Assembly: GCA_963785725.1 (NCBI GenBank)
Contig: CAWAWS010000005.1
Span: 96,001 to 160,000 of the forward strand
Length of the DNA stretch: 64,000 bases
Direction: 5' to 3'
From: an uncultured delta proteobacterium
Lineage (GTDB): Bacteria > Myxococcota_A > Polyangia > Palsa-1104
This document shows positions 3,396 through 56,550 of the stretch, in pieces. A model generated the notes under the pieces. It saw only the letters and a program-made list of their open reading frames with translations. It did no database searches and had not been told where the DNA came from. How positions within the stretch are numbered: position 1 is the stretch's first letter; every line of letters starts with the position of its first letter. The position numbers and the translations under genes were made by a program.

Positions 3396-4721
3396 TCAGG
3401 GGTCCCAGGAAAGACCGAGCTCGACAAAGCCGCTCGAGCGCGACTTGAGCAACACGAAGTCGGGATAGGCGTAATAGAGATAATTGACTGCGATATCGAG
3501 GAGGATGCGCGTATCGCCGGGATAACGTGCCTGCCGGAGCACACGCGCCGCGCCGAAGTTGACGATATGTCCGAGCTCGCGACTCAGCTCTTTGTCGGAC
3601 GTGTAGTACGTATATCGATCGGGCGATAATAGATATTTCGAATGATAAAAGTCGGCGCCCGACTGTGCATAAAAACGATAGCCCAGTCGCACGCGCCATC
3701 CCGACGTGACCGCGCGCATCTCGGCGGCGGCCGCCAGGCTTTCGACACCCCAGTTGTCGATGCCGAGCCGGGCTTCGCCATGCAACGCCAATCCCTGCGT
3801 CAGCGAATGCACCCACTCGGCCACGGCCGCGTGGCGCACGCGCAGATTGGGCACCGTCTCGGGCAGCCCGTCCGCCGAGCCGATCGTGTTGGCGAACACG
3901 ATGCGCTGGTTCTCGCCGGTGCTCGTCGTCCAGTCGCCGAAGCGAACGTTGCGATAAGGCGAGCCTTGATAGCCGATCGCTGCCGCACCGTCGTAGCGCA
4001 GGCGCAGCGCGTCGTTGGGCGTGAGCACTTGGGCCAGTCCGGCGGTCCATCCGACTTCGCTCATCCGGCGCGCGAAGGTGCTGTCGAGGACGCTGCTAAT
4101 CCAATTGGCGGTGAACGTGAATCCGGCGAGCAACGTCATCGAGCGCTCCACTGCGTCGATCGATCCGTTGAGACCGCCGCTGACGCTGTTGTAGTCGCGC
4201 TCGTTGGCATACGCGGCCGACAGGTTGAAGGTGTGACCGCGACTGTCGTTCCAGCCCGAGCCCAGCGTTGCCGACAATCGGCGATCGGACATCTTGCCGC
4301 CCGACGTCGAGGTCGTCCCCGACGCGCTCGTCACCACGTCGACCTGGCTCAGCCCGGGCGAAGAGCGCACGTCGACCGAGGCGCTCGATACGACATCGAC
4401 GTCGGCGCTGCCGCTGATGGTCCAGCGTCCCACGCCGCCCGTCATCGCGGCCAGCGCGCGGAAGACGATGGTCTCGTCGCTGTCCGCGTAGAGCCCGAGC
4501 CGGCCGGCACCCGTCACCGGCGTCTTGGCCGGCGCCTCGCGACTGACCGCAGTGTCATCGACCTTGGCCGGCACGGGGCTCGACGGCGACGCCGGCTCGC
4601 GCGCGTCAGCGGCCGTCGCCGCCGCCGGGGCGCTCGGCGGACCGGCGGGCACACCTGATTCCTGCGCGCTCACCGAGGACGCCGCGACACACAAGGCGGC
4701 CACGAAGAGAGCGCGGGTCAA
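3396..4721 (-). CDS. DUF3570-family outer-membrane beta-barrel protein (copy 1)
   Basis: Signal peptide, YADSD, DVVSSAS-VD, ERDYNS, GYQGSPYR, YYTSDKELS, C-terminal LGLSWDP. Start (TTG) overlaps the DUF4266 stop; the ORF-track start at 4970 is too far upstream. Confidence 0.8.
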   Translation of the reverse strand: MTRALFVAALCVAASSVSAQESGVPAGPPSAPAAATAADAREPASPSSPVPAKVDDTAVSREAPAKTPVTGAGRLGLYADSDETIVFRALAAMTGGVGRWTISGSADVDVVSSASVDVRSSPGLSQVDVVTSASGTTSTSGGKMSDRRLSATLGSGWNDSRGHTFNLSAAYANERDYNSVSGGLNGSIDAVERSMTLLAGFTFTANWISSVLDSTFARRMSEVGWTAGLAQVLTPNDALRLRYDGAAAIGYQGSPYRNVRFGDWTTSTGENQRIVFANTIGSADGLPETVPNLRVRHAAVAEWVHSLTQGLALHGEARLGIDNWGVESLAAAAEMRAVTSGWRVRLGYRFYAQSGADFYHSKYLLSPDRYTYYTSDKELSRELGHIVNFGAARVLRQARYPGDTRILLDIAVNYLYYAYPDFVLLKSRSSGFVELGLSWDP

Positions 4722-4930: not shown

Positions 4931-5410
4931 ACGGCGCTGATGACGAGTCAGTGGGTTCCGCGTACGCCAAGGAAACGAGCTATTCAATCGAGGACCTCGA
5001 TCGTTAGTGCCGCGAAGCTTGCCTTTGAGACAAACGACGTTGCTTTTTGCAGCTAGAGACAAAGATGAGTGCCCAGGCGCACATTCAGCGACCGATGCCG
5101 ACGACCGCTTTGACGATTCCGGGATCACCGTTGCTCTCCTCCTAACGGAGTTGCGTGAGGGTCACGCCGCAGGCTGGGCGACTGGCCGGTTCCACCAAGC
5201 AAGCTCGGAGCCAAAACGCGCGGCGGCTTGGTGGTCAATCGCGGCCCACATCGCGGCACGCCTGCCGGCGAGCGTCGAGCGTGACTGGCCGCACGCGCCG
5301 AGGTGCGCACGAATCGGACAGTGCGCGGACGGCGGTCGCGACCGTTCGCAAAACACGCGGCTGCCGCTTGAATCCGCGGCCGAACCTGCGCATCGTGGAG
5401 GCTATCAAAA

Positions 5411-18138: not shown

Positions 18139-18154
18139 TGGCATCGAGCTTGCT
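18139..18154 (+). promoter_or_regulatory. Sigma54 -24/-12 promoter
   Basis: TGGCATCGAGCTTGCT (GG-N10-GC), upstream of the lgt-like gene. Confidence 0.75.
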
Positions 18155-18237
18155 GACCCACTGCAGTCTCCGCGGTCATCGTTGTCCGACTGGCACAACC
18201 GCCGTTCGAGAGGTCCAGACTGATTCCCTGGCTCAAC

Positions 18238-19008
18238 TTGGACGTGCCTGTGCTCGCGGGATCGGCGGCGCCGTTCTGGATCCTCGTCGCGGTTGGCATC
18301 GCGTTGGGCACGAGGGCCAGCCTGCAGCGCGGCGACCAGCTCGGCCTGACCCACCCGCTCCGCTCGTTGCTGACCGCCGTCCTCGTCGGAGGATTCGTCT
18401 CGGCCCGGCTGCTCTATCTCGTCGCCGAACGACCGAGCGCGCAGCCCATGCGCTGGCTCGACCTCGTCGCGCCCGCGGGCCGACTGTCGTCATTCGGCGG
18501 ATTCGCAGGCGCCGTCGTGATGCTGCGTCGGTGGACACATCGGCGCCATCTGCCCGTCGCACCTTACGCCGACGCGCTCGCCGCGGGCTTCCCGCTCGGC
18601 TGGCTCTTCGGCCGCCTCGGCTGCTTCATCGCGCACGATCATCCCGGTCGACTGACCCACTTCTTCTTGGGCGTGCGCTATCCCGACGGCGTCCGTCATG
18701 ACCTCGGCCTCGACGAAGCGCTCTATGCCGCGACTATTGCCGTCATCTTTCGGCTACTCCAGCGTCGCGCCCGTCCGGTCGGCACCTATACGACCATTCT
18801 CATCGTCACTTATGCGCCCGTGCGGTTCGCGCTCGATTTCCTGCGCACGAGCGACGAGCGCTATCTCGGGCTGACGGTCGCGCAAGCCGGCTGCTTCCTG
18901 CTCTGGGCGGCGGCGATGTACCTGGTGACCGCGACGCTGTTGGCGATGACCGAAACCACAGCGCGGTCGCGATTGCAACCTGAAGATCGGAGTCGTGAAC
19001 AGTCTTGA
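18238..19008 (+). CDS. lgt: Prolipoprotein diacylglyceryl transferase family protein
   Basis: ARLLYL, SSFGGF, YADALA, GRLGCFIAHDHPG, RHDLGLDE, YAPVRFALDFLR; multi-TM. Confidence 0.8.
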   Translation: MDVPVLAGSAAPFWILVAVGIALGTRASLQRGDQLGLTHPLRSLLTAVLVGGFVSARLLYLVAERPSAQPMRWLDLVAPAGRLSSFGGFAGAVVMLRRWTHRRHLPVAPYADALAAGFPLGWLFGRLGCFIAHDHPGRLTHFFLGVRYPDGVRHDLGLDEALYAATIAVIFRLLQRRARPVGTYTTILIVTYAPVRFALDFLRTSDERYLGLTVAQAGCFLLWAAAMYLVTATLLAMTETTARSRLQPEDRSREQS

Positions 19009-19078
19009 GTGCTGTCTTTTTACTCGCCGATTCGCGCTATTTCGAGAACCCTCGATCGCCGCGCTACGTCTCACTCGC

Positions 19079-19327
19079 ATGACGCCCAAACCGAGCCGCA
19101 CGCAGCTCATTCAATGGTCGCACTGGCTCTCTGAGCGTTCGGGCTGCTTGATCCACGGTCGGGACGCCAGTCACGCCTTCGTCGGCTGCGCGCCTACCGA
19201 CTCGGAAGAGCCGCGCATCGAATGCGGCCAATGCCAACACAATGGCAGACATACGCTGCTCTCTTTCTGGAACCGCGATCGCGATCAAGTGTTGGCCGAC
19301 TCGCGAACGGTCGATCGAAGTCAATGA
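19079..19327 (+). CDS. Small hypothetical protein with CxxH and CxxC
   Basis: MTPKPSR...GCLIHG...IECGQC... Fills the gap between lgt and the Rieske relic. Confidence 0.35.
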   Translation: MTPKPSRTQLIQWSHWLSERSGCLIHGRDASHAFVGCAPTDSEEPRIECGQCQHNGRHTLLSFWNRDRDQVLADSRTVDRSQ

Positions 19328-19341
19328 ACCGAGGAGGGCTC

Positions 19342-19611
19342 ATGTCGCACCCACGAGACCGCCCCGCGCCGAGCGCGTCCCGACGGCACTTCTGTCGCTG
19401 AGCGGCGCTGGCGTTCGAGGCCGGCGGTCTGTACGCCATCTCCGCCATCTGCACACATCAAGGCTGCACCGTAGACTTCGCGAGCGCGGCCAGCGGATTC
19501 CATCGTCCGTGCCACGGCTCCGTGTTCTCGTTCGATGGCCTCGTCGAAGGCGGACCGGCAACGGCCTCGCTGGTGCACTACGGCGTATCGCCCGACGATC
19601 GCCTCGCGTGA
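19342..19611 (+). pseudogene. Degenerate Rieske [2Fe-2S] gene
   Basis: GGAGG RBS. MSHPRDRPAPSASRRHFCR*AALAFEAGGLYAISAICTHQGCTV...FHRPCHGSVFSFDG..GGPA. In-frame TGA at 19399; the box-2 ligand Cys is replaced by Arg. Confidence 0.8.
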
Positions 19612-20471
19612 CGGCGACGACGCGCGGCGAGCACGAGGAGCGGCAGCAGCAGCAGTATCGTCAGTGACCCGCGCGCCGGCGCGCCGCCCAACGCGCACGC
19701 CGCGCTGGCACCGGTCGGCACGCTCGCTCCCGCCTCTTGCAAGAAGAAGCTCGCCTGCGCGGTGTCGTCGCCGTACGGATTCTGATCATTCGCCGCGGTC
19801 CCAGCGCCGCCGTTGCCGTCGACGGCAGCGACGTAGACCGTGACCGGCCCGGTGCCGGCGGGCGGCGCCGTCCACCACAGGTGCCACGTGGTCGGCCCGT
19901 TGCGCACCACGAGCCGCGCGGTGTTGGCATCGAGCTGGCGATTGCCGAAGATGGCGTCGCCGTCCGGCGCGACCAAGGCCTCGTCGTTCGTCTGATCGGG
20001 CGCGGGGCAGACACCGGCGACCGGCGCCGCGGCGCAGAAGCCCTTCGTCAGCGGCGCGCCCGCGGCGTCCACCTCCAAGCCGAAGTTGTTGTTGTTGCAC
20101 TGCACGTAGCCGCTCGACGTGCCGGGCGGATCGGTGCAGGTGGGGCTGTTGTATTGCGTGCCCTTGGTCTCGTTCTTCAGCTGCACCTCGAGCTCGTACG
20201 TCTGCCCCGGCACGTAACCGCTCTGAAAGAGCGCCGGCTGATCGGCGGCCAGCTCGAGCCCGAGCGCGCGCGGCCCGTCGGTGTGGCAGCTGTTGCACGT
20301 CAGCGACGCGAAGCGCGGCGCGCCGGTGAAGTAGATGCCCTCGCCGCTCGCGCCGTAAGTCGCGCCGTGCGGCACCATCGGGTTGGCGAAGAACTGCGTG
20401 GCATCGTCGAAGGCGTGTGCTGCCGTCGGTAAGCCGAGGACGAAGAAGATCGCGATCCACTTAGAGCGCAA
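19578..20471 (-). CDS. Secreted CxxCH + Reeler-like protein with MYXO-CTERM-type anchor
   Basis: Signal peptide, TCNSCH, WWTAPPAGTGPVTVYVAAVDGNG, C-terminal ACALGG...LLLLPLLVLAARRRR. Confidence 0.7.
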   Translation of the reverse strand: MRSKWIAIFFVLGLPTAAHAFDDATQFFANPMVPHGATYGASGEGIYFTGAPRFASLTCNSCHTDGPRALGLELAADQPALFQSGYVPGQTYELEVQLKNETKGTQYNSPTCTDPPGTSSGYVQCNNNNFGLEVDAAGAPLTKGFCAAAPVAGVCPAPDQTNDEALVAPDGDAIFGNRQLDANTARLVVRNGPTTWHLWWTAPPAGTGPVTVYVAAVDGNGGAGTAANDQNPYGDDTAQASFFLQEAGASVPTGASAACALGGAPARGSLTILLLLPLLVLAARRRRHARRSSGDTP

Positions 20472-21782
20472 AGCCCACCTCCAGCGCGCCACCGAGCCAG
20501 TCATCGCCGGCCGAATGCGCAAAGCGCGTGCCGGCGCCGGCGAACGAGAGGCCGACGTGATCGTAGCCGCCGCTCAGCCGCAGCCACAGCCACGAGGTCA
20601 GCCACGACGTCGCCGACGCCGACGCCGACACGCCCCACGCCGACGCGGCGCCATATTGTGTCGTCGACGCGATGGCGCCGTCGTAAAGCACGCCGAGATA
20701 GCCGCCTCGCAGCGCCAGCACGGCATAGCGGCCGACGAGCGCGCGCTCCATCCGAGGCCGGCGGCGATGGCGTCGTAGCGGACATCGGGGACGCCGACGT
20801 CGACGGGCGCGGCGTGGCTCCAGCTCATGCGCTGCCAGCCGGTGTCGACGGTCAGCGTGCCGCCGGCGGATTCGTGACCGAGCGGGATGCGGCCGACGAG
20901 CAGCACGTTCCAGCGCGAGGCGCTGCCGGTCGACTTGCCAACCGCCGACGTCGACGTGAAGCCGAAGATGGACTCGTACAATCCCGAGAGGCCGAACGAC
21001 GCCAACACCGGATGGTCCTCGGCGAGCTCCGACGACAGCGCCAGCGGGAATACGGCGCCTTCGACGCGGATGCCGGCCACCGTGCCGCCGGCGTAGCGCG
21101 GCGCCGAGGCGACGTCGAAGCCGAGCCGGCGCGTCAAGAGCGACGGGCCGACGCCGCCGAACACGCCGGCCACCGCGCGCTTGGCCGCCGCCTGCTTGGC
21201 GATGCTGGTGTCACCGGCGACCGCGGGCGACACGTCTTCGACCGACGATGGCGCCGGCGACGACGACGCGCTCACGTCGGGCGGCGACTCGGCCGCGACC
21301 TCCGCCGGCGGCCGCGCGCGACCCATCGGCACGACGCGCTCGAGCGCGCGCACGAGGTCGGCCGCCACGCGCTCGCGAATGAGCGGCAGCGTGCGCCCGC
21401 CGAGCTCGTAACGTCCGCGCGCGATGACGCGGCCGCTCGAGCCTTCGCGCACGGCGACCAAGAGCAGCCGCTGGCGCCCCTGACCGACGACGGTGCCGCC
21501 GATGATGGCGTCGATGTGCAGCCTGAGCGCGACGGCGCGCACGTCTTCCGGCGAGGCGCCGCGCCGGCCCAACTGCTCGGCGACGCGGCGATAGTCGGCG
21601 CCCGGCACCAGCTCATACAGCTCGGTCAGCTCGGCTTCGAGCGCGCTCGAGAAGCGGCCGCCGTCGGGACCGCTGACGCCGAGCAGCGTCACCGTCTTGG
21701 CGGCGGCATCGACGCGCGCGCTCGCGGCCAGCGTCGCCGCCACGGCCAGCGCCGGCAGTAGTCGGCGGCTAATAAATGACAT
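20461..21782 (-). CDS. Secreted protein with probable C-terminal outer-membrane beta-barrel (frameshift near 20750)
   Basis: ORFs 20598..21812 and 20461..20751 join into one protein. Alternating amphipathic strands ending GGALEVGFAL. Confidence 0.6.
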
Positions 21783-22854
21783 TGATGCCCGCTTCGATGT
21801 TGGCGCCGTCACGCGACGTCAAGAGCGCGAAGTCGAGGTACTTGAAATGGAAGTAGTCGACCTTGGCCTCGAGCTCGAGCGCGCGATGCACCCACGGCAG
21901 CCGCCACGACACCTTGGCGCCGACCAAGTTGGACCAAAAGGTCGACAGCTCGCGATCGGCGGTGACGAAGTTGCCGAAGCTCTCGGTCGTGTAGTGCGTC
22001 TGAAAGAAGCTGGCGCCCTTTTGAAAATAGAAGCGCTCGCGCAGCCGCAGGGTCACGTCGCCGAACGTGACGAAGTAGCGCAGCTGCATCGTCTGCGCCT
22101 GCACGCCCCAGTTGTCGGAGTAGAAGCGATAGTCCGCCTGCAACGCGGTATCGGTGAACAGGTGGCGATTGAGCGCGAGCACGACGGCGTGGCGATAGCG
22201 ATCGTTGGGATCGCTCTCCGGCACCTTGAACGCGATGCTGCTCGCGCCATTCGCCTCCGGATCTTCGATGCGCACGAAGCGATACGGGCTCGCTTGATAG
22301 CCGTCGTTGTACGCGAACGAATAGGACAGCTGCGCGATGGTGCGCCGGTCGATCACTTGGCTCCACGACGCCGAGACGCCGTTGACGAGGAGCGAGCGGT
22401 GAAAGAGCTGATCGCCGGTGCGTCCGACGCTGTTGGCGGACACCGAGTAGCCGACCGACAGCGTCGAGTTGCGCTCGAACAGGTCCTGCGCCAGCCCGAA
22501 GTCGACGTTGTGCGAGCGATAGTCGTTCTCGACCGAGTAGACGTAGCTCCCGGTGAGCGTCGTCGCGTGGAACTTCTGCGTCAGGCCGGCGGAGATCTCG
22601 CTGCGAAAGTCGGTCATGCGCTTGGTGGCGTTGCTGATGACGTCGACCGACGCCGAGCTGACGATGTCGGCGACGTAGCTGGCGGAGACGGTGCCGCCTT
22701 GCCAGGCGTCGCGCGAGATGGCCGTCAGCGGCGACACGACCGTCGTGCGATCGCTGTCGGTGTACACCTGCGTCTTGACCGTGAAGCTATCGTCGGCGTG
22801 AGCGGCGGCCGGCAGCGCCAGCGCCAAGGCGAGGACGGCGAATCTCAATTGCAT
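21769..22854 (-). CDS. DUF3570-family outer-membrane beta-barrel protein (copy 2)
   Basis: YTDSD, DIVSSASVD, ENDYRS, GYQASPYR, YSDNWGV, TADRELS, C-terminal INVIY. Confidence 0.85.
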   Translation of the reverse strand: MQLRFAVLALALALPAAAHADDSFTVKTQVYTDSDRTTVVSPLTAISRDAWQGGTVSASYVADIVSSASVDVISNATKRMTDFRSEISAGLTQKFHATTLTGSYVYSVENDYRSHNVDFGLAQDLFERNSTLSVGYSVSANSVGRTGDQLFHRSLLVNGVSASWSQVIDRRTIAQLSYSFAYNDGYQASPYRFVRIEDPEANGASSIAFKVPESDPNDRYRHAVVLALNRHLFTDTALQADYRFYSDNWGVQAQTMQLRYFVTFGDVTLRLRERFYFQKGASFFQTHYTTESFGNFVTADRELSTFWSNLVGAKVSWRLPWVHRALELEAKVDYFHFKYLDFALLTSRDGANIEAGINVIY

Positions 22855-23057
22855 CCGCAGCCGCCTCCAGCCGAGCCATAGCCGCCGACGGCACCTTCGC
22901 GCGCCTCGAGCATGTGCAGATCGAGGACGTCTTCGTGCGGGTCGGGCTGGAACGTCATCGTCGGCTTGGCCAAGAGCTCGCGCTCGTAAGGCTTGACGCG
23001 AACACAACCGGCGGCGCCCGAGAGCGCCAGAGCGAGAATTACGAAGCGCATCGTCAT
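22845..23057 (-). CDS. DUF4266-family small lipoprotein (copy 2)
   Basis: AAGC-VRVKPYERELLA...AREGAVGGYGSAGGGCGCN. Confidence 0.9.
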   Translation of the reverse strand: MTMRFVILALALSGAAGCVRVKPYERELLAKPTMTFQPDPHEDVLDLHMLEAREGAVGGYGSAGGGCGCN

Positions 23058-23620
23058 CGCGGCGTCAGCCCCATCATCGTGAAGACCGTCTGGCAGCTCG
23101 CGTCGACGGGGCTCGACTGCTTGGCGCCGCCGATCCACGCCACGAGCGCTTGCCAATCGGCGTCGTCGGTCAGCGTCGTCGCCGGATAGACCGGGAAGAT
23201 GCCGACGCCGTGATGCTCGGCGCCGCCGAAGCTGGCCTTGAGCGGCTTACCGAGCAGCGGAATGTGCTGCAGGTCGGGCTGCATGCGCTCGGCGGCGGTC
23301 GCGGCATAAAGCAGCCCGGAGACCGACTCGAAGTTGAGCTCGACCTCGGAGTCGGTCAGGCGCGCGTCGCGTCCATCGCGCGTGCCGTCGTCGGTCTGGC
23401 GCAGCTTGCCGGGCGAGTACAGCCGCAGCGCGTGGTCGGCGTTGCCGTGGCACGCGAGGTACGAGCAGCGCCGAATCAGCACCGGCTCGACCGTGCAGAC
23501 GAACTGGTTGTAGTCGAGGAAGGCGTCGGGCGAGCCGGTGGTCTGCAATCCTTGCGTGTGGTCGAGGCCGGGGCAGCCGGCGACCGTAGCCACGACGATG
23601 ACGGCGAACAGGCGATTCAC
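23054..23620 (-). CDS. Lipoprotein with CX4CH putative heme-binding motif
   Basis: VAGC lipobox; F...VEPVLIRRCSYLACHG, LLGKPL...HHG, LVAWI. Confidence 0.7.
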   Translation of the reverse strand: MNRLFAVIVVATVAGCPGLDHTQGLQTTGSPDAFLDYNQFVCTVEPVLIRRCSYLACHGNADHALRLYSPGKLRQTDDGTRDGRDARLTDSEVELNFESVSGLLYAATAAERMQPDLQHIPLLGKPLKASFGGAEHHGVGIFPVYPATTLTDDADWQALVAWIGGAKQSSPVDASCQTVFTMMGLTPR

Positions 23621-23673
23621 GCGGAGTGACGCGCAGCGCGGTAAATGGCGGCGGAAAGCACGGCGCGCCTGTC

Positions 23674-23689
23674 AGCAAACGGAGTGCCA
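23674..23689 (-). promoter_or_regulatory. Sigma54 -24/-12 promoter
   Basis: Minus strand TGGCACTCCGTTTGCT, upstream of the 23620-to-19578 operon. Confidence 0.75.
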
Positions 23690-23910
23690 GCGACTGAGGC
23701 GCGCGACAGCAGTTTGCAGTGCGCAACGATCGTACAGCGCGCCGCCGTCGCGGGACCTATCAGTCTGATCCGGCTCGGTCGCGGTCGTACGCGACCCTCC
23801 CTCTTGGCTCGCTTGCGAGTGGGACTGCAAACCGGTTCGCACGCAGGCGGGAGCGCAGTCGCCGGGTCATTTCGCGTCGCCGCGGCTCGCGTCCGGCGCC
23901 GAGTTGCGCG

Positions 23911-23926
23911 TGGCACCGCGCTTGCT
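23911..23926 (+). promoter_or_regulatory. Sigma54 -24/-12 promoter
   Basis: TGGCACCGCGCTTGCT, 13 bp before the Rieske ATG at 23940. Confidence 0.75.
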
Positions 23927-23939
23927 CGGTCGGCGAACC

Positions 23940-24698
23940 ATGCGCGATGACTCGAAATGCGCCACTTGCCTCGATCGGCGCGCCTTTGTCGCGGCCGCCG
24001 GCGTCGGGGCGCTGGCGCTGGCGCTTCCCGGCTGCGAAGCGCCGACGACCGCGGGACGCATTTCCGAAGGCCCCATCGATCCGACCACGGGCGGAACCGG
24101 CGGCAACGGCAACGGCGGCGGAGACACCGCCGGTGGCGGCGGCAGCGCCGGCGGTGAAGCGGGCGGCGGCGGCAGCGCCGGTGGCGGCGGAACCGCGGGC
24201 GGTGGCGGCGAAGCGGGCGGCGGCGGAACTGCGGGCGGCGGCGGAACTGCCGGTGGCGGTGGAACCGCCGGCGGCGGCGGAAGCGCGGGCGGCGGCGGAG
24301 CCGCGGGCGGCGGCGGAACTGCCGGTGGCGGCGGCAGCGCGCCCACTTGCACGCCGGGCACGCTCGCCGCGGGCGCCGCGTCGAGCTACACCGTGGGCAC
24401 GGCCAAGAGCTTCAGCAACGCCATCAGCTCCGGCGGCCAAAAGTACACGATCTTCGTCGCCAAGGACGCCAACGGCTTTTACGCGATGGACTCGGACTGC
24501 ACGCACGCCGGCTGCCCGGTCGCGTCGCAAGGCACCACGTACTACTGCAACTGCCACGGCGCCACCTTCGACGCCAACGGCAAGCACACCGGCGGCCCGG
24601 GCAGCGGTTATTTGCAGCATTACACCGTCTGCGTCGACGCCAGCGGCAACGTCACCGTCGACATCGACAGTCAGGCGACGCCGACGCAGCGCTTCTGA
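23940..24698 (+). CDS. Tat-exported Rieske [2Fe-2S] lipoprotein with Gly-rich linker
   Basis: DRRAF twin-Arg motif, LPGC lipobox, CTHAGC and CNCHGATF. Confidence 0.9.
   Translation: MRDDSKCATCLDRRAFVAAAGVGALALALPGCEAPTTAGRISEGPIDPTTGGTGGNGNGGGDTAGGGGSAGGEAGGGGSAGGGGTAGGGGEAGGGGTAGGGGTAGGGGTAGGGGSAGGGGAAGGGGTAGGGGSAPTCTPGTLAAGAASSYTVGTAKSFSNAISSGGQKYTIFVAKDANGFYAMDSDCTHAGCPVASQGTTYYCNCHGATFDANGKHTGGPGSGYLQHYTVCVDASGNVTVDIDSQATPTQRF
24090..24340 (+). repeat. Intragenic 18-bp tandem repeat encoding GGGG(S/T/E)A
   Basis: About 12 degenerate units. A similar tract lies at about 57865-57960 in the ricin gene. Confidence 0.85.
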
Positions 24699-24707
24699 CC
24701 GGGCGCC

Positions 24708-24953
24708 CTATTCGACCCGCGTGTGCGTGGCGTCCCAGACGATCTGCAGGCCGGCGAACTTGCGCAGCCGATCGCGCACGCTCACTTTGCCTTCGATGAT
24801 CTCGTCGGCGAGATCGGGCGCGAGGAACGACGGCGGATCCTGCCGCAGCGCCAGCTCGTCGGCGCGCGTGAGATAGAGCGCGATCGGCGCTTGGCGGTGG
24901 GTTCCGATATACGCGTCCTTGAGCGCCCGCACGCGCCTCTCGAATTCCGTCAT
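24708..24953 (-). CDS. Small hypothetical protein
   Basis: MTEFERRVRALKDAY...VWDATHTRVE, with high-GC3 codon usage. Confidence 0.55.
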   Translation of the reverse strand: MTEFERRVRALKDAYIGTHRQAPIALYLTRADELALRQDPPSFLAPDLADEIIEGKVSVRDRLRKFAGLQIVWDATHTRVE

Positions 24954-25355
24954 CTCGCGTCCGCGTCCAAGCGCCAAGAGCGGAGCAAGCGCCATTCCCA
25001 GCCCGAGAGCGCGGCAGACCGGGCAGCCGCAGCGGCCAGCTGCGCAACGTTCGAACAGAGCGCGCAACGATCGTACAATTCGACGACGACCCGCATGTCT
25101 GACCCGCGGCGGCTTTGGCGACGGTCCGCGCAACTCCAGTAGCGTCTCTTTCGGCGGCCTCGCGAGCGTCTGCACGCGGCACGAAGCGGGAGGCCGCTTG
25201 GACGAGGCAACGTTGGAGTGCGCCGGTCAACAGCCCGCCGACGAGATCGAGCGCTCGCCGGCGACAGTTGACGCGAATCGACGACCGCGCGACCGATCAA
25301 ATAGCGACGATTAACGGTGCCGCGTTCACCACTGCCAATCACACTGTCAGAGCCC

Positions 25356-25562
25356 ATGATGAAGCTCGCACTCCTTGTCACTTTCGTCTCCACCACCGTC
25401 GGTTGCGCCACCGTCAAACCTTGGCAGCGCGAGAGCCTGGCGCAGCCGGGCATGAGCCTCGACGCCACGCCCAGCGCCGCCGCCGAGCAGCACATGCTCG
25501 AGTCGCGCGAGGCGTCCGTCGGCGGCTTCGGCGGCGCCGGCGGCGGTTGCGGCTGTAACTGA
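25356..25562 (+). CDS. DUF4266-family small lipoprotein (copy 3)
   Basis: TVGC-ATVKPWQRESLA...SREASVGGFGGAGGGCGCN. Confidence 0.9.
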   Translation: MMKLALLVTFVSTTVGCATVKPWQRESLAQPGMSLDATPSAAAEQHMLESREASVGGFGGAGGGCGCN

Positions 25563-25563
25563 G

Positions 25564-25745
25564 AACCCCAGGCTTCGCCTCGATTGAGCAGGCGAGGGCG
25601 AGGCGTGTGAGTCGGATCGTGGATGCGACCACAGCGACCGACCGAGGAATACTGTCCGTATTTCGACCGAGGGAGCGCGGACGTAGTCCGCGAGGCGGCC
25701 GCACGCATCGTCCGTAGCGGATCGATCGAGGCGAACCCTGGGGTT
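25564..25745. mobile_element. MITE/REP-like 182-bp element with 21-bp terminal inverted repeats
   Basis: AACCCCAGGCTTCGCCTCGAT (25564-25584) pairs with ATCGAGGCGAACCCTGGGGTT (25725-25745), 20/21 match. Internal GAATAC/GTATTT hairpin; no transposase. Confidence 0.6.
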
Positions 25746-26976
25746 AGAAGCGCCCGGTGGCCGACAGCGCCAGCACGAGCGCGCTGGCGAAGCCGCGGGT
25801 GCGCGCGGCGTTGGGCGGCTCGGGCGAGAGCGCGAAGATCTTGACGTAGTCGGCGCCGAGGCTCCATTCGACCTCGGTGAACATGCGCCAACGCCGCTTG
25901 TCCGGCGAAAAGCGGCTGTCGTGGACGAAGCGCGCGCCGAGGAGCAGGTCGGCGATCGGCGCCAGCTCCTGGTCGGCCGTGAAATAGCGGCCCACCGGCC
26001 CGGCGCGCTCGTAGGAGTCGGCCCAGCCGACGTCGCGGTAGAAGCTGGCGCTCGACTGCACGTAGCCGCGAGCGCGCGCCACGTAGCGCCACGCGGGCGC
26101 GCTCAGCTTGAGCGGCTGCTCCCAGCTGACCTCGCCGGTGATCGCTTGGACGCCCCAGGTGTCGCGATAGAGCCGCAGGTTGCCGCCGAGCGTCGCCCGG
26201 AGCGACGGCAAGGCGTAGCGGACGCGGGCGGTGACGGCGCCGCGGTCGCGCAGCCGCGGATGCGACTCTTGCGCCTGCATGAAGCCGTCGTCGAGACGCA
26301 CGCGGCGGTAAGGGCTCGACTGAAAGCCGTCCGCGTGCTGCCACGTGCCGCTGAGGCCGCCGAGCAGATGCGCCGTCAGCGACTGCACCACCCCGACTTC
26401 GAGGTCGTCGAGGTCGAGCCGCTCCTCGGTCAGCGCGGCCACGCCGGCGAAGCAGCCACGCGAGCTGTCGAGCGGCTGCCGCAGCGTCAGCGCCACGCCG
26501 GGCTGATTGAGGTCGCAGATGCTGTCGAAGCTGTGGCTGTAATCGACGGTGAGGATGGTGTTGTGCTGCGCGAGGTCGAGCGTGAGCCCGCCGCGGATGA
26601 GGTGCGAGCGATAGTCGCTCTCGGTGCCGTAGCCGTAGCCGGCGCGAAACGTCGCCGGCCCGGCGGTGGCCGCGGCGCCGCCGCCGATGACGTTGCGCAC
26701 CTCCGAGAAGCGGGTCGCGGCGCTGACGACGTCGGGCGAGCCGTACGTGCGCGGCGTGGCGCCGGTGACGATGTCGGCGCTCCAGTTGACGTCGAACAGG
26801 AGCCAAGGCTTCGCGTGGACCTTGCCGGACACGGACGGCGTGATGACCACCAGCGCATCCGACGACGCCGGCTGGACGAAGACGCGCAGATCGGCGTTGG
26901 CCTCGCCCCGCTCTTGCGCGGCCGCGGTCGCGACGACGAGCGTGACGAGCGCAGCGACGACGGCAGCGCGGATCAC
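25744..26976 (-). CDS. DUF3570-family outer-membrane beta-barrel protein (copy 3, divergent)
   Basis: ADIVTGAT, DVVSAAT, ESDYRS, GFQSSPYR, YRDTWGV, TADQELA, C-terminal TGRF. GTGA overlap with the upstream gene. Confidence 0.8.
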   Translation of the reverse strand: MIRAAVVAALVTLVVATAAAQERGEANADLRVFVQPASSDALVVITPSVSGKVHAKPWLLFDVNWSADIVTGATPRTYGSPDVVSAATRFSEVRNVIGGGAAATAGPATFRAGYGYGTESDYRSHLIRGGLTLDLAQHNTILTVDYSHSFDSICDLNQPGVALTLRQPLDSSRGCFAGVAALTEERLDLDDLEVGVVQSLTAHLLGGLSGTWQHADGFQSSPYRRVRLDDGFMQAQESHPRLRDRGAVTARVRYALPSLRATLGGNLRLYRDTWGVQAITGEVSWEQPLKLSAPAWRYVARARGYVQSSASFYRDVGWADSYERAGPVGRYFTADQELAPIADLLLGARFVHDSRFSPDKRRWRMFTEVEWSLGADYVKIFALSPEPPNAARTRGFASALVLALSATGRF

Positions 26977-27398
26977 GGCGTCACCCAATCCTCGATGACG
27001 CTCGCCGCCGTCGCGCGATCGAGGACGACCGGCCCGGGCGGATGCAGGTTCGACTGACCTTCGGGCACCGTCAAGAGGCGACTCGCGAGCGGCTCATCGC
27101 AGCGCACGAGCTGCAGCGCGGACAGATAGTTCTCGCGCCAGCCGAGCGGCCAGGCGGCGAGCGGCGTGCCTGCCGCCGGCGCGGCCTCGGGTGGACGCAG
27201 CCGCAGGTAGCCGTGCCCGTCGTCGAAGGCGTGGCAGCCGCGCGTGCTGCAGCGGTTGGCCTCCAGATAACGCGGCCAGACTTCGCTGACGAAGATATCA
27301 GGGCTGGCCGCGCAGGCGCCCGCGTCCGGCACGGTCCCGGCATCGACCGTGCAGGCTGCGCCAGTCATGAGCGCCAACATCGCCAGACGTCGCCACAT
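26973..27398 (-). CDS. Lipoprotein with CX4CH putative heme-binding motif
   Basis: GAAC lipobox; FVSEVWPRYLEANRCSTRGCHA, RLLTVP...LHP, IEDWV. Confidence 0.7.
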   Translation of the reverse strand: MWRRLAMLALMTGAACTVDAGTVPDAGACAASPDIFVSEVWPRYLEANRCSTRGCHAFDDGHGYLRLRPPEAAPAAGTPLAAWPLGWRENYLSALQLVRCDEPLASRLLTVPEGQSNLHPPGPVVLDRATAASVIEDWVTP

Positions 27399-27446
27399 CG
27401 TCGCAGCCGATCTATGCAGCCGCGCCGGCGTGTCTACAAAGCAGTC

Positions 27447-27950
27447 ATGAGCGAGCGGCGAGCCAGCGTGAGCGTCCGGCCTATTGAGCCGGCGGATCGA
27501 GCCTTTCGCGTGTCGACCAGCGGACGTGGTCACCCGAGCGATTGCACGCGGCGCCTCTTCAACCTGGCCGTGTGCGGCCTCGGCGCCGAGCTCTTGGCCT
27601 GTGGCAGCGCGACGACCGTGCTGACGCCCACCGCCGACCGGGTGACGCTGACCTACGCGCAGTTCCCGGCGCTCGCCCAGGCCGGCGGCAGCGCCGTCGT
27701 CGACGTCGCCGGCGGTTTCCCGCTGGTCGTCGTGCGCACCGGCGACGCCACCGCGGTGGCGCTGAGCGCCACCTGCACGCACGCCGGCTGCATCCTGCGC
27801 TACGAGCCGAGCGCGTCCGACCTTCACTGCGACTGCCACGGCGCCAACTTCAGCCTGGGCGGCGCCGTCTTGCACGGACCGGCGACCATCCCGCTGCCGC
27901 TGTATGCCGCCACGACCGGCGCCGACGCCATCACCGTCGACCTCGCCTGA
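27447..27950 (+). CDS. Tat-exported Rieske [2Fe-2S] (lipo)protein
   Basis: TRRLF motif, LLAC, CTHAGC and CDCHGANF...GPA..PL. Confidence 0.88.
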   Translation: MSERRASVSVRPIEPADRAFRVSTSGRGHPSDCTRRLFNLAVCGLGAELLACGSATTVLTPTADRVTLTYAQFPALAQAGGSAVVDVAGGFPLVVVRTGDATAVALSATCTHAGCILRYEPSASDLHCDCHGANFSLGGAVLHGPATIPLPLYAATTGADAITVDLA

Positions 27951-27966
27951 GCCGGCATCGACGCCG

Positions 27967-29199
27967 CTAGGACGCGTCTTGCAGCAGCTTGAGCAGCTCT
28001 TCGGGACTGACGAAGCGGTCGATCTTGTGCACCTGCTTGCCGTCGGCGCTGACCAGCACCAGCGTCGGTAGCGTCTCCGCGTTCCAGTGCGCTTTGGCCG
28101 CCGCCACCGCCGGATCGTCGTCGTTCGTGCAGTTGACCTTCACCAGCGTGAAGTGACCGAGCGCGCGCGCCACTTCGGTGCGGCTGAACGTCTTGAGCTC
28201 CAGCTCTTTGCACGGCAGACACCAGTCGGCATAGAAGTCGAGCAGCACCGGCTTGTGCAGCGCGCGCGCCAGCTTGAGCCCTTCGTCCTCGCCGTGCACC
28301 CAGGTCAGCACCGGCGCGCCCGCTTCCAGCTTGGGCGCCAAGATGCCGCCGATGACGCCGAACAGGCCGACCACCACGACGCCGACCGAGAGCGCCTTGC
28401 GCAGCTTGACCACCGTCGTGTCGTGAAACGACAGATGCACCGCGCCGAGCGCCAGGCCGGCCGCCGCCACCGCGCCGCAGCCGACGAGCCACAGCGTCGA
28501 CGGGCGGCCGATGGCGCGCAAGGGCGCGATCACGTTGCGCAGGAAGTACAGCGCGCCCACGAGCATGACGATGCCGAAGACGCTCTTGACCGCCTCCATC
28601 CACGCGCCCGACTTGGGCAGCGCGACGGCGAAAGCGGCGATGGCGAAGAAGAGCACGCCCATGCCGAGCGCGTAGGTGACGAGCAGCGAGCCGCCGAGCA
28701 GCACCGACTTCGTCGTCGCCACGAACGCCAAGATCGAGGCCAACACCGGGCCGGTGCAAGGCGCGGCGATGATGCCGCCGACGAGGCCCATCGCGAAGGC
28801 GCCGAAGAAGCCCTTGCCGCCGACCGAGGTCAGCTTCTGCTGCAGCTCCGACGGCAGGCTGAGCTCGAAGGCGCCGAACATCGACACCGCCATGATGACG
28901 AAGAGGGTCGCGATCGGCACCATGACCCACGGGTTGGCCATGAACGTGCCGAACGCCTTGCCGGCCAGCGCCGAGCCGACGCCGAGCGCCGCGTACATGA
29001 CGCCGATGCCGCCCACGTACAGCGACGCCAGCGCCATGGCGCGGCGGCGCGGCACGTCGTCGCCGCGCGCGCCGAAGAGCGACACCGTGATCGGGATGAG
29101 CGGATACACGCACGGCGTCAGCGACGTCAGAAAGCCGCCGACGAAGACGCTCGCGTAGGCCCACAGCCAGCCGTGCGCGAACAGCGCGCCGCCGTTCAC
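27967..29199 (-). CDS. dsbD: DsbD/CcdA-type transmembrane electron transporter with C-terminal thioredoxin domain
   Basis: LTPCVYPLIP, APCTGP, LPKSGAWM, DFYADWCLPC. No N-terminal alpha domain. Confidence 0.88.
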   Translation of the reverse strand: MNGGALFAHGWLWAYASVFVGGFLTSLTPCVYPLIPITVSLFGARGDDVPRRRAMALASLYVGGIGVMYAALGVGSALAGKAFGTFMANPWVMVPIATLFVIMAVSMFGAFELSLPSELQQKLTSVGGKGFFGAFAMGLVGGIIAAPCTGPVLASILAFVATTKSVLLGGSLLVTYALGMGVLFFAIAAFAVALPKSGAWMEAVKSVFGIVMLVGALYFLRNVIAPLRAIGRPSTLWLVGCGAVAAAGLALGAVHLSFHDTTVVKLRKALSVGVVVVGLFGVIGGILAPKLEAGAPVLTWVHGEDEGLKLARALHKPVLLDFYADWCLPCKELELKTFSRTEVARALGHFTLVKVNCTNDDDPAVAAAKAHWNAETLPTLVLVSADGKQVHKIDRFVSPEELLKLLQDAS

Positions 29200-29690
29200 T
29201 GGTTCACCAGCGCCAACAGCTGCGCCTCGAGCTTGGACTCGTCGCCGGGCTCGAAGCCGCCGTTGATGGCGCGCACGACGCCGCGCTTGTCGATGACATA
29301 GGACGACGGCATCTTCGGCGGCTCCCAGCGACCGACGATCTTCTTGCCGCCGTCGTTGATGACGGTCAGGCGGATGCCCTTGGCGCGCAGGAAATCCTCG
29401 GCGTTCTTGCGATCGTCGTCGATGTTGACGGCGACGATCTCGACGCCCTTTTGCTTCAGGCGCGGCGCCAGCTGCGACAACAGCGGCAGCTCCTTCTTGC
29501 ACGGCTCGCACCACGAGGCCCAGAAGTCGAGCAGCACCACCTTGCCGCGCAGCGACGACAGCTTGAGCGGCTGCTGGGTCAGCGTCGCCGACTCGAAGTC
29601 GGGCGCGGCCTGGCCCGGCTTGACCTCCGCGAACGCCGACAGTGGGCCAAAGAGCGCGACTACGAGGGCGAGCCTGGAAACGAGCTGCAT
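29196..29690 (-). CDS. TlpA-family periplasmic thiol:disulfide reductase
   Basis: Signal peptide, GKVVLLDFWASWCEPC, MPSSY.ID. Confidence 0.92.
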   Translation of the reverse strand: MQLVSRLALVVALFGPLSAFAEVKPGQAAPDFESATLTQQPLKLSSLRGKVVLLDFWASWCEPCKKELPLLSQLAPRLKQKGVEIVAVNIDDDRKNAEDFLRAKGIRLTVINDGGKKIVGRWEPPKMPSSYVIDKRGVVRAINGGFEPGDESKLEAQLLALVNQ

Positions 29691-29713
29691 GAATCCTCCT
29701 GCGCTGCGGCATT

Positions 29714-29729
29714 AGCAAGCCGGGCGCCA
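29714..29729 (-). promoter_or_regulatory. Sigma54 -24/-12 promoter
   Basis: Minus strand TGGCGCCCGGCTTGCT, upstream of the tlpA-dsbD pair (GGAGG RBS follows). Confidence 0.7.
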
Positions 29730-29949
29730 CGTGAGCTGGGCGTCGTCGCCGCCGTTTTACGACCGCGCGCGACCGCCGATCTCGCTGGCAACGCTGCCGA
29801 TCGCGCGGCTTGCAAACTCGGACGCGCAGCGCTGGGTGCGCAGTCACCGGGGCGCCCTGCCGCGCTCGCGCGACGACGAGGCGGGCGGCAGCCGTCGCCA
29901 CGCTGTTCGCGCGCTGCGCAACTGTTCGAATCCTGCGCAGCGACGAGAG

Positions 29950-30558
29950 CTACGGCGTGAGCGTCGTCAGCTGAAACGAGGTCGGCAGAGCAGCCAGCAC
30001 CGCGGGAACGAGCGCGCTGTTGTAGCCGTTGCCGAGGCGGATGCAGTCGTCGTCGCCGTCGACGACCGCCTGATCGAAGTCGACGCCGGCGAACCAAGCA
30101 GCGACGTCGATGGTGACGGCGAAATGGATGGTCTGACCGGCGGTGAGCTCGCGGCCGGACGACGCGCGCAGATCGGCCACCACGTCGTCGTCGTCGTCGC
30201 GATCGACGAGGTCGACGACCAGCGAACGGCCGCGCCACTCGCCGCTGACCTGGAGCGACTGGACGGAGAAGCGCAAGCGGCTGTAGACGCCTTGCGGCAG
30301 GCCATCCATCGTCAGCGGCGTCGCCGGCGTGAGCGCGTTCACGGCGACATCGGGCAGCATGTAGCCGGGCGCCGCCTGCACGTCGCCGAAGAGCGACAGA
30401 TCCTCGAGCACGAGCGCGGCGCTGTCGACGGTGAGCGGCCCCGACGGCAGCGGCTGCGTGGCGAACGCGACCGCGACCGACCCCGTGGACTGAGCCGGCG
30501 CCGACGCGCCACCGCCGCAGCCGGCGACCAGCAGCAGCAAAGTCCAGCACGACTTCAT
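29950..30558 (-). CDS. Hypothetical lipoprotein
   Basis: MKSCWTLLLLVAGC lipobox; acidic, beta-rich. Confidence 0.65.
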   Translation of the reverse strand: MKSCWTLLLLVAGCGGGASAPAQSTGSVAVAFATQPLPSGPLTVDSAALVLEDLSLFGDVQAAPGYMLPDVAVNALTPATPLTMDGLPQGVYSRLRFSVQSLQVSGEWRGRSLVVDLVDRDDDDDVVADLRASSGRELTAGQTIHFAVTIDVAAWFAGVDFDQAVVDGDDDCIRLGNGYNSALVPAVLAALPTSFQLTTLTP

Positions 30559-30571
30559 GGGGCACCCATGC

Positions 30572-30587
30572 AGCAACGGCAATGCCA
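30572..30587 (-). promoter_or_regulatory. Sigma54 -24/-12 promoter
   Basis: Minus strand TGGCATTGCCGTTGCT, 13 bp before the ATG at 30558. Confidence 0.7.
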
Positions 30588-30644
30588 AACGGAAGACGGC
30601 GCCGCGCGCGCTAAGTTCTGGCCAACTGCGCACGGATCGTACAG

Positions 30645-31997
<1,353 letters not shown>

Positions 31998-32006
<9 letters not shown>

Positions 32007-33383
32007 CGGCGTGTAGAGCTCGGCGCCGGGACCGCCACCGACGACCAGCACCGTGCCGTCGCACAGCGGCACGGCCACGTGCGAGGCGCGCGCCGTGCCG
32101 AGCGAGCGCTCGGACACGAAGCCGACGCCGGGCACGAACAGCTCCACCGACGACAGCGGCATCTGATTGCTGCCGACACCGCCGACCACGAGCACGCGTC
32201 CGTCGGGCAACAGCGTGGCCGAGTGGCGTCGCCGCGCGGTGCCGAGCGCGTAGGACGTCGTCTCGCGCGTGATCGGGTTGTAGACCTCGGCGTCGCCGGC
32301 GGGCGTGCGCGCGCTGTCGATGGCGCCGCCGACGACGAGGATGGTGCCGTCTTGCAAGAGCGTGGCGGTGGCGTCGGCGCGCGGCTGCCGCAAGGCGGAG
32401 ATCTCGCTCCACGCCGTCGGGCTGCCGTCGCCGTCGCTGTCGGGGACGAGCGCCTCGATCGACGCCGTCGGGCTGCCGGTCGCGTCGTAGCCGCCGATGA
32501 CCACCGCGATGCCGATGGCGACGACGGCGGCGTGATCGCGACGCGCCACGTTCATGGCCGGCCCGGCGTCGACGGTGGCCGTGCCGTCGTCCTGCACCTG
32601 CACGAGCGCCGCCGAAGCCAAGGGCGCGCCGCCCGAGACGGCGATGCCGCCGGTGACGAGCACGCGTCCGTCGGGCAGAACGACGGCGCGGTGGCCCATG
32701 CGCGGGCCGAGCAGATCGTTCTCGAAGGCGACGAAGCTGCCGTTGCTGGCGAGGTAGACCTCGGAGCTGCCGATGGGCGCGTGGCTGGCGTCGCTGCCGC
32801 CGACGACGAGCGCGCCGACGCCGGCCACCGGGACGAGCTGCGAGTTCTCGCGCGCCTGGTTGAGCGCCGGCGCCGCCAGCGTGAAGCGGCCCGTCGGCGG
32901 CGAGTAGAGCTCGGCGTTCGTCAGCGCCTGCTCGTTCAGCATGTCGATGCCGCCGGCCAAGAGGATGCTGCCGTCGGCGAGCGCCAGCACCAACGGATCG
33001 TCGCGCTGCTCGAGCGGCGCGCCCACGGTGGGGCCGAAGAAGTTGGTGGGGGCGAAGTAGATCGACGCGGTCTCGCCGCGGCCCTCGAAATCGAAGGGGC
33101 AGCTCTGTCCGCGCGCCTGCACGTCGCCCGACGCGGTCACGCCTTCCAGCGTCAGCACCGTGCGCGGGCCTTCGGTCACGCCGGAGAGCGACAGATAGCG
33201 CGCGCCGCCGGCGCTGAAGCGTCGCTGCGCCAGCACGTGGTCGTCGCGCTCGGCGCTCAGGTTGAGCGCCGAGACCGCGGCCAACAGCCGGCGATCGGCG
33301 GGCAGGCGGATGTCGAGCGCGACGTCGGGTTTCGGGCTGCACGCCGCGAAGGCCAAGGCGGCGCCGAGCCACGCGCGCTTCAT
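31998..33383 (-). CDS. Kelch-repeat lipoprotein
   Basis: FAAC lipobox; repeated R..H.A..L.DG.VLV.GG units. Confidence 0.88.
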
Positions 33384-34453: not shown

Positions 34454-34467
34454 GGGCGGAGTGTATC

Positions 34468-36688: not shown

Positions 36689-36777
36689 ACGTCAGCGCGC
36701 CGCGGCCACCTTCAATCCAGCTAACATCGAGCTGTGCTCGACCGAGGCGACGCTGCGCTTGGATCGCCGCCTCGATC

Positions 36778-36815
36778 GTGATATTACTAAATTGAAATAT
36801 GATGATTCGATATTG
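36778..36815. promoter_or_regulatory. AT-rich ars promoter/operator region
   Basis: GATATTACTAAATTGAAATATGATGATTCGATAT directly before arsR in a GC-rich background. Confidence 0.5.

Positions 36816-55473: not shown

Positions 55474-56550
<1,077 letters not shown>

Follow-up and report, generated by a model that had tools for sequence, protein, structure and literature searches.

We analyzed a window of 64,000 nucleotides from the genome of an uncultured delta proteobacterium (Myxococcota_A, Polyangia, Palsa-1104; assembly GCA_963785725.1, 8.9 Mb and 88% complete), namely positions 96,001 to 160,000 of contig CAWAWS010000005.1. It harbors three modules pairing a predicted DUF3570 outer-membrane barrel with a DUF4266 lipoprotein, in the company of DsbD, TlpA, Rieske and CX4CH proteins. 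It is best read as the flavinylation system of DUF3570, DUF4266 and DsbD in a co-regulated variant that is extended by heme and Fe-S proteins. Mechanistically, we lean toward a flavin-dependent electron relay of the cell envelope, which would be co-induced from sigma-54 promoters, served by ApbE in trans and directed outward. The available text of PMC8238504 describes clusters in which ApbE and DUF3570 are joined by DUF4266, DsbD and a thioredoxin-like protein, and whose function it gives as unknown. An earlier note on this DNA had announced a candidate new system; this was overstated, as the core of the locus is a published DsbD-type flavinylation cluster. We speak of a variant rather than of a plain member because ApbE is unlinked, being encoded on a separate contig here (C25, E 1.4e-81) and lying beside none of the 52 loci compared from the same family.

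Family assignments were based on Pfam and NCBIfam profile searches of the window proteins, which recovered the gene set named in the earlier note. The first module lies in a reverse-strand operon led by CX4CH lipoprotein 1 (23054..23620; CSYLACH), by alignment a probable monoheme c-type protein with a distal His. It is followed by DUF4266 lipoprotein no. 1 (22845..23057; PF14086), which ends in GGGCGCN and is the predicted plug of the barrel lumen, by DUF3570 barrel no. 1 (21769..22854; PF12094, E 2.2e-39; motifs DIVSSAS and DVISNAT), by an exported protein (20461..21782) whose C-terminal part is probably a second outer-membrane barrel and by a protein with a conserved CxxCH (19578..20471). 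The latter, listed before as a CxxCH surface protein, is now identified as a choice-of-anchor V protein (NF041895, 48.4 bits with a cut-off of 42). Upstream, on the forward strand, lies a Tat-type (twin-arginine) Rieske lipoprotein with a long Gly-rich linker (23940..24698; PF00355, E 2.7e-10). The second module is present as well, but its DUF4266 gene (25356..25562, forward; PF14086, E 1.7e-18) is convergent with DUF3570 barrel no. 2 (25744..26976, reverse; Pfam; motifs DIVTGAT and DVVSAAT) and stands outside its operon. Barrel no. 2 follows CX4CH lipoprotein 2 (26973..27398, reverse; CSTRGCH, from sequence search and alignment), beyond which come a second Tat-type Rieske lipoprotein of uncertain start (27447..27950, forward; PF00355, E 1e-11), DsbD (27967..29199, reverse; PF02683, E 6.3e-54) and a TlpA/ResA-type periplasmic thioredoxin with a WCEPC site (29196..29690, reverse; Pfam/NCBIfam). 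DsbD is of the beta-gamma form, with a transmembrane domain and a WCLPC thioredoxin domain; no alpha domain was found by Pfam or NCBIfam. The third pair, also named previously, consists of DUF3570 barrel no. 3 (3396..4721, reverse; PF12094, E 4.8e-22; motifs DVVSSAS and DVVTSAS) and DUF4266 lipoprotein no. 3 (4718 to approximately 4912, reverse; PF14086, E 2.1e-12; C-terminal CGCH). All three DUF4266 proteins of the window end in C-G-C-[N/H]. Both CX4CH genes overlap the next gene by ATGA/GTGA, in line with the proposed coupling to the barrel operons, and both Rieske proteins read as having RR-type N-termini and a lipobox-like Cys. The earlier note lacked the second barrel gene, lgt, the lipoprotein at 29950, five sigma-54 promoters and a regulator cassette at 30645-35931.

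From the sequence, the C-terminal CGC of DUF4266 had been suggested to be seated in the DUF3570 pore; the structure models support a position of DUF4266 in the barrel lumen. Barrel no. 1 (341 residues) was modeled by AlphaFold2 with a predicted local distance difference test (pLDDT) of 95.9, and 16 membrane strands were counted among 18 strand elements; its fold matches were generic outer-membrane barrels with identities of at most 13%. In such barrels short turns face the periplasm and long loops the outside. By this rule both flavin motifs of barrel no. 1 are placed in outer loop 2, with S49 and T57 of the mature chain as the predicted acceptors. The complex of barrel no. 1 with the 53-residue DUF4266 protein scored 0.79, versus 0.02 for the best of 3 controls; the mark used for such scores is reached by 116 of 157 solved pairs and by 2 of 215 mismatched pairs. 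Runs agreed in at least 73% of contacts, with a partner pLDDT of at least 67. Modeled contacts alternate along the barrel strands, as lumen-facing residues do, and take in periplasmic turns, the upper ends of strands 11-13 (against E37-A39 of DUF4266) and D43 of motif 1. DUF4266 is accordingly predicted to occupy the lumen of a 16-stranded barrel; the lipid anchor would sit at the rim facing the periplasm, and the REG motif close to the external opening. The model did not confidently place residues 45-53, among them the CGC, which is conserved without exception (123 of 123 sequences).

ApbE flavinylates DUF3570 at two [S/T]GA[S/T] motifs, as demonstrated experimentally in the available text of PMC8238504. 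All three DUF3570 proteins of the window keep motifs of the form D-x-x-[ST]-x-A-[ST], with the canonical version (DIVTGAT) only at site 1 of barrel no. 2. Across 123 aligned barrels the site 1 acceptor Ser/Thr is retained in all 123, the Ala in 119 and the Asp in 112, and the motif occurs in none of 802 control windows. The Gly of site 1 is missing in 14 of 29 homologues linked to ApbE; a Gly-to-Ala change leaves about half of the flavinylation, according to the available text of a review (PMC12052999). Profile searches of the contigs found seven DUF3570 genes, seven DUF4266 genes and one ApbE in this genome. The observation that no ApbE was in view is therefore true for the window, but not for the genome. 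A linked ApbE/FMN (flavin mononucleotide) module was named in the earlier note as a finding that would refute flavin independence, and the evidence comes close to it: ApbE is present, though unlinked, the motifs are kept, and CX4CH and ApbE share loci in the phylum. FMN_bind, DUF2271 and RnfD/NqrB had no match in this 88%-complete genome; nor did the FMN_bind gene of its relatives by tblastn, though the neighbor of that gene does match. The argument from an orphan ApbE is valid for this genome only. A sample of 150 genomes from the phylum comprised 48 DUF3570-positive and 102 negative genomes, 80 of the latter being searched for ApbE at a stricter E cut-off. ApbE was found in 48/48 positive and 55/80 negative genomes, related genomes not being independent of each other, and in 14 of 15 genomes of the same family. 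The ApbE of contig C25 likely acts in trans on the barrels.

The comparison covered 80 loci with DUF3570 taken from the 48 phylum genomes. A further 52 came from the family itself, drawn from 13 of its 14 other genomes (some listed loci, short contigs and one genome being omitted), and 8 belonged to different families within the order. Each was scanned 6.5 kb to either side with profiles built in this analysis, some loci being cut by contig ends. Among the 80 phylum loci we found DUF4266 in 76, CX4CH in 45, ApbE in 34, TlpA in 32, DsbD in 8 and anchor-V in 8. CX4CH and ApbE occurred together in 18/80 and in 6 of the 8 anchor-V loci; all 8 DsbD loci had ApbE and none had a CX4CH hit. The 52 family loci had DUF4266 in 51, CX4CH in 27, TlpA in 19, Rieske in 15, anchor-V in 13, a second barrel in 11 and DsbD in 5. 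Co-occurrence with DUF3570/DUF4266 in other genomes, on which the earlier note had staked its proposal, is thus borne out for CX4CH in the phylum, and for Rieske within the family (15/52) but not among the phylum loci. The arrangement Rieske-(TlpA-DsbD)-CX4CH-DUF4266-DUF3570-barrel-anchor-V is repeated at 11 loci of 9 family genomes, with DsbD inside in 4, and a paralogous operon of the same order lies on contig C17 of the host genome (109675-114269; 79% nucleotide identity). In the reverse direction, 28 metagenome loci, mostly on short contigs, were found from the CX4CH family: DUF4266/DUF3570 lay downstream in 19, 8 ended at the gene and 1 was a miss, with a co-oriented Rieske gene upstream in 17 and ApbE in 0. 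Because CX4CH and ApbE adjoin at 18/80 loci, heme appears to add to flavin and not to replace it. Overall, heme partners occur widely and alongside ApbE; Rieske is a family-level addition.

In the CX4CH domain C24 and H25 are invariant, the first Cys (C19) and the distal His (H103) are each kept in at least 90% of 90 sequences, and a Trp is near-invariant; the CX4CH spacing itself is found in 91 of 102 profile hits. Searched against the PDB, the family profile gave only four hits at E<=10, all of them c-type cytochromes with weak E-values, among them PccH (best, at E 0.017), hydrazine synthase alpha and SoxA. CX4CH is a documented heme motif in the available texts of PMC6469936 and PMC11492766. 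Cytochrome maturation genes (PF01578) are present in the genome, and we consider it likely that the CX4CH proteins bind heme. No Pfam family matched them above cut-off. The apo model (pLDDT 74) spoke neither for nor against heme, with no Foldseek match at E<=0.001 and a best Z of 2.4 by VIA. A first iterated profile drifted onto proteins of 1,000 residues and was rebuilt on single domains. The pattern scan relied on the close-family alignment, as the diverse one varied too much. Scored by genome, CX4CH was found in 30/48 DUF3570-positive and 6/80 negative genomes, a tally that is biased and not taken as main evidence, since positive genomes had supplied the profile and each negative genome had fewer of its candidates scored. 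Among 120 listed homologues of CX4CH protein 1, 8 carry an organism label, 5 being Polyangia/Myxococcales and the rest 'bacterium'.

The locus also appears to be co-regulated. Using the strict sigma-54 pattern TGGCRY-N5-TTGCW, we found five sites where 0.24 were expected, and none of 100 shuffles reached five. Genome-wide there are 59 strict sites; the densest 12.5 kb is this locus and the next elsewhere holds two. Three of the five precede genes of the relay: a divergent pair stands before the CX4CH-1 operon (23674-23689, reverse) and Rieske 1 (23911-23926, forward), and another before TlpA-DsbD (29714-29729, reverse). The remaining two lie before the lgt gene (18139-18154, forward) and the 29950 lipoprotein (30572-30587, reverse). 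The promoter regions have in common an 18-bp upstream site, TGCGCA-N3-WTCGWACAG, at 23720-23737 for the divergent pair, in tandem at approximately 29902-29939 before TlpA-DsbD and at 18062 and 18080 before lgt, and singly at 30627-30644. A relaxed promoter, TGGCTCCGAGCTTGCT, precedes DUF4266 no. 3 (5198..5213, reverse) with the upstream site at 5304-5321. Two tandem sites at 25041..25078 (forward) have no sigma-54 consensus within 300 bp, and none was found for the unit of barrel no. 2, CX4CH 2 and Rieske 2. A looser form of the upstream site has 8 of its 14 genome-wide matches in the window, all intergenic, a count that is circular because these matches had served to derive the pattern. In independent DNA the site was found at 12 non-window loci among 196, and in 7 of the 28 metagenome loci it directly precedes a Rieske gene or Rieske-led operon; there it is often followed some 170 bp on by a TGGA-variant -24/-12 site. 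Next to the cluster is a sigma-54 activator of uncertain start with FHA, AAA+ (GAFTGA) and helix-turn-helix (HTH) domains (30645..32006, forward; domain search, synteny), followed by a Kelch beta-propeller lipoprotein (31998-33383, reverse), a PEGA-like protein (33380-34423, reverse) and a Ser/Thr kinase (34468-35931, forward), the last three from profile search and synteny. This cassette adjoins the cluster here and in 7 family loci, and the syntenic activators share a conserved LG[IVL]SRR helix. The makings of a sigma-54 regulon are in place, with -24/-12 sites before genes, a GAFTGA activator and rpoN in the genome (its match split over two frames). The adjacent FHA activator is the natural candidate for binding the upstream site, and the cluster is likely switched on by this one local regulator and co-induced from its sigma-54 promoters.

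In the relay that we favor, DsbD would give cytoplasmic electrons to TlpA, as is established for these families; from TlpA they would go on to reduce the CGC at the end of DUF4266. The Gly-rich CGC tail, unplaced in the model, may then swing as a shuttle to FMN on outer loop 2, a role comparable with that of the C-terminal CXC shuttle of Erv2 (available text of PMC4019985). At the FMN, the two-electron chemistry of thiols would be broken down into single-electron transfers, exchanged with the CX4CH heme, with Rieske and with surface CxxCH proteins. The outward direction is the most likely one, whereby an acceptor at the cell surface would be reduced. More tentatively, and with doubts outweighing confidence, DUF3570-DUF4266 might constitute an undescribed trans-outer-membrane electron conduit. 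In it a covalently flavinylated, 16-stranded barrel would be threaded by a lipoprotein with a swinging CGC tail; electrons would pass from the DsbD/TlpA thiols to surface FMN and then one at a time to a new family of CX4CH monoheme and surface-anchored cytochromes, and a kinase-FHA-sigma-54 circuit with a readable binding site would turn on the whole.

Several observations weigh against the favored relay. The heme evidence for the CX4CH proteins is at the level of motifs and weak E-values, the best NCBIfam match of TlpA is ResA, which allows for a role in cytochrome maturation instead, and Rieske is not part of the core because none of the 80 phylum loci outside the family has it. Both the strict promoter and the upstream site are missing from the paralogous operon on contig C17. 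The remaining points concern flavin and bear on the earlier proposal of a flavin-independent, Fe-S/heme variant, in which the barrels would have lost flavinylation and Rieske or heme would stand in for FMN. ApbE lies within 6.5 kb of 0/52 family loci; it is kept in the 55/80 phylum genomes without DUF3570, and since 9/15 family genomes encode an FMN_bind protein, it is retained there for other substrates too. Neither motif of barrel no. 1 or of barrel no. 3 contains the Gly. Homologues without a linked ApbE have this Gly less often, both at site 1 (28/93 versus 15/29 linked) and at site 2 (at most 6/93 versus 12/29), and the same is true of the site 2 acceptor (75/93 versus 29/29). Gly being commoner with linked ApbE and absent from barrels no. 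1 and no. 3, some copies may therefore be weakly flavinylated or not at all. Swaps between flavin and cytochrome are also known in other systems, according to the available text of PMC8238504. Against such a loss stand the canonical DIVTGAT of barrel no. 2, the invariant acceptor Ser/Thr, the presence of ApbE in this genome, in all DUF3570-positive phylum genomes and in nearly all family genomes, and its sharing of loci with CX4CH. We no longer uphold the proposal and rate it as very improbable for the cluster; flavin independence is unlikely for the whole system and possible for single copies.

The direction and the nature of the cargo were weighed in the same manner. Electrons could flow inward, from outside or periplasmic thiols through CGC and FMN to heme/Rieske and respiration as in Erv-type oxidases, while DsbD and TlpA would mainly reduce CX4CH/CxxCH apo-proteins for heme attachment. 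Erv enzymes combine a shuttle disulfide (C-terminal CXC in Erv2), a flavin and cytochrome c (PMC4019985, available text), and PccH, closest to the CX4CH profile among solved structures, is needed for electron uptake (PMC13591261, available text), although that match is weak. The ResA likeness of TlpA, the inclusion of CcdA in the transmembrane family of DsbD and the position of DsbD and TlpA directly before CX4CH in 4 family loci fit a maturation role. However, TlpA (32/80) and DsbD (8/80) accompany DUF3570 at loci in which no CX4CH gene turned up, which is why we assign the thiol arm to the barrel, and no Erv-like flavin-proximal CxxC was seen in the barrel; we regard inward flow as unlikely. 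A further reading, to which we give slightly less credence still, sees in barrel and plug a channel, either for delivery of lipoproteins to the surface or for metal import with reduction, whose CGC would be lipidated or bind metal. It draws on the seven paralogous modules of this genome with their differing partner genes, on the promoter type that lgt has in common with the cluster, on the GCGC motif, thought to be lipidated, of MYXO-CTERM signals (10.1101/2023.06.07.544157, available text) and on the VIT1 iron transporter in 25 published clusters (PMC8238504, available text). The persistent thioredoxin, DsbD and ApbE neighbors and the invariant flavin-acceptor residue favor redox chemistry instead; no transporter family recurs among the neighbors of the 140-odd loci, which were clustered and partly scanned, and the modeled plug fills the lumen.

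DsbD-type flavinylation clusters, as described in the available text of PMC8238504, share with this locus DUF3570 with two [ST]-x-A-[ST] motifs, a CxC-tailed DUF4266, a periplasmic thioredoxin and DsbD. In contrast to them, ApbE is unlinked here, CX4CH, Rieske, anchor-V and second barrel genes are added, and three copies stand under one apparent sigma-54 regulon. The portion of that text available to us does not use 'barrel', 'Rieske' or 'Myxococc', and that of 10.1101/2024.03.13.584918 does not mention DUF3570. In the literature searched, to which the large supplement of PMC8238504 (it may list Myxococcota clusters) did not belong, we found no description of the barrel-plug architecture, of the CX4CH, Rieske and anchor-V partners or of the regulon. 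MtrAB porin-cytochrome conduits likewise hold a redox-active partner in the lumen of an outer-membrane barrel, as is here predicted. MtrA is a decaheme protein, whereas here a 16-strand barrel of 341 residues, a 53-residue dithiol plug and covalent flavin would do without a multiheme wire. MtrAB (PDB 6R2Q) came at rank 13 of the barrel fold search with 13% identity and a template modeling score of 0.47, a generic barrel likeness; porin-cytochrome systems have a multiheme cytochrome in the barrel, encoded beside it, while the neighbors here carry single heme motifs and the modeled plug is DUF4266. PccH, the C-terminal part of hydrazine synthase alpha and PSCyt1-like monoheme cytochromes share with the CX4CH proteins a helix, F-x-x-x-[VI]-x-P-x-L-x-x-x-C, that runs up to the heme motif, but the CX4CH family differs in its spacing, a conserved distal H-x-G-G and a lipoprotein signal. 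Erv/ALR thiol oxidases form a functional chain of flexible terminal CXC shuttle, flavin and cytochrome c; this is an analogy only, with no homology or common fold, FMN being covalently held on the barrel in our reading and flavin adenine dinucleotide in a four-helix bundle in theirs. Finally, a 2005 study by Jelsbak reportedly concerns myxobacterial FHA-domain sigma-54 activators that are paired with Ser/Thr kinases. Such activators show the same FHA-AAA+-HTH arrangement beside a kinase and -24/-12 promoters, whereas here a candidate binding site and a putative local regulon can be read as well.

For a published DUF3570 system without assigned function, location or mechanism, the locus thus supplies a concrete architecture, in which flavin sites are predicted on an outer barrel loop, a CxC lipoprotein in the pore and candidate one-electron partners around them. 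The increment here lies in the regulon, the candidate binding site and the tested flavin question. The candidate regulator and its site make function testable, as the inducer of the regulon should reveal the substrate. Were the conduit reading true, porin-cytochrome wires would have a counterpart built on thiol and flavin, and CxxCH counts would have overlooked the cytochromes of the CX4CH family.

Other genes share this promoter type. The lgt gene (18238..19008, forward) encodes a divergent Lgt-family prolipoprotein diacylglyceryl transferase (PF01790, E 7.4e-24; below NCBIfam equivalog cut-offs). The lipoprotein at 29950..30558 (reverse) is conserved beside the activator by synteny and has only unnamed Myxococcota proteins as look-alikes; matches to DUF4382 (0.86) and MbnP (0.83) were below the reliable range, so no copper role is claimed. 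The anchor-V protein had no PDB sequence match at E<=5. A MYXO-CTERM-like tail (Cys motif, transmembrane helix, basic tail) is visible by eye in this protein and across the 13 members of its cluster, all 13 of which keep the CxxCH, though NCBIfam, where TIGR03901 is the recognizer, gave no match to the tail. The second barrel gene carries a one-base frameshift near 20747 (tblastn frames -3/-2), and its 12 other homologues examined are single intact open reading frames (ORFs) of 416-447 residues. Of 4 soil runs, 3 gave contigs with the extra base as well. With the rpoN match likewise split over two frames (contig C20:359480-359960), an assembly error is plausible. Other genes also appear split in the window, at 1326-1610, 37653-38643 and 55003-56550 (ACR3-like and MoxR-like by eye), and together these cases suggest indel errors in the assembly.

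A relaxed sigma-54 site at 2442 (reverse), accompanied at about 2551-2590 by the upstream site in degenerate, tandem form, precedes a polyketide-cyclase-like gene (1610-2245) and a 94-residue ketoacyl-synthase-like fragment (1326-1610, by eye), which may join the regulon. An 81-residue ORF (24708-24953, reverse) that scores well as coding and matches no family lies between Rieske 1 and the tandem sites at 25041-25078. Another, of 54 residues (43174-43338, reverse), resembles the N-terminal part of a CX4CH lipoprotein (E 0.00035) and is possibly a remnant. Directly after the kinase, at 35981-37587 (forward), come a Tat-type hemerythrin-domain protein, from a profile match, and ArsR-like and arsenate-reductase-like genes, labeled by eye.

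Outside the window the genome holds four further DUF3570/DUF4266 modules with different partners each, every type being conserved across the family. Besides the C17 paralogue, one (contig C26, 145032-147732) has CX4CH and an SH3-barrel beside barrel/TPR genes that we take to be gliding-motility-like, one (contig C14, 236012-238432) a membrane protein and TlpA, and one (contig C7, 329219-332239) an fn3 protein, which in a relative weakly matches DUF2271 (E 1e-5). A recurrent type of DUF3570 cluster includes a 1,000-residue protein in which CX4CH domains are repeated and which weakly matches hydrazine synthase alpha, together with a beta-propeller/cytochrome c protein and often ApbE (L030, L033, L037, L049, L054, L055, L062, L071, L074, L076, L077, L079-L081, L083, L084, L086 and L090). 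Similarly, in two genomes (L114, L141) barrel-2-type modules are flanked by a conserved five-gene block that includes a cytochrome c-like protein, a Cys-rich lipoprotein, a protein starting CASCGCG and a beta-propeller.

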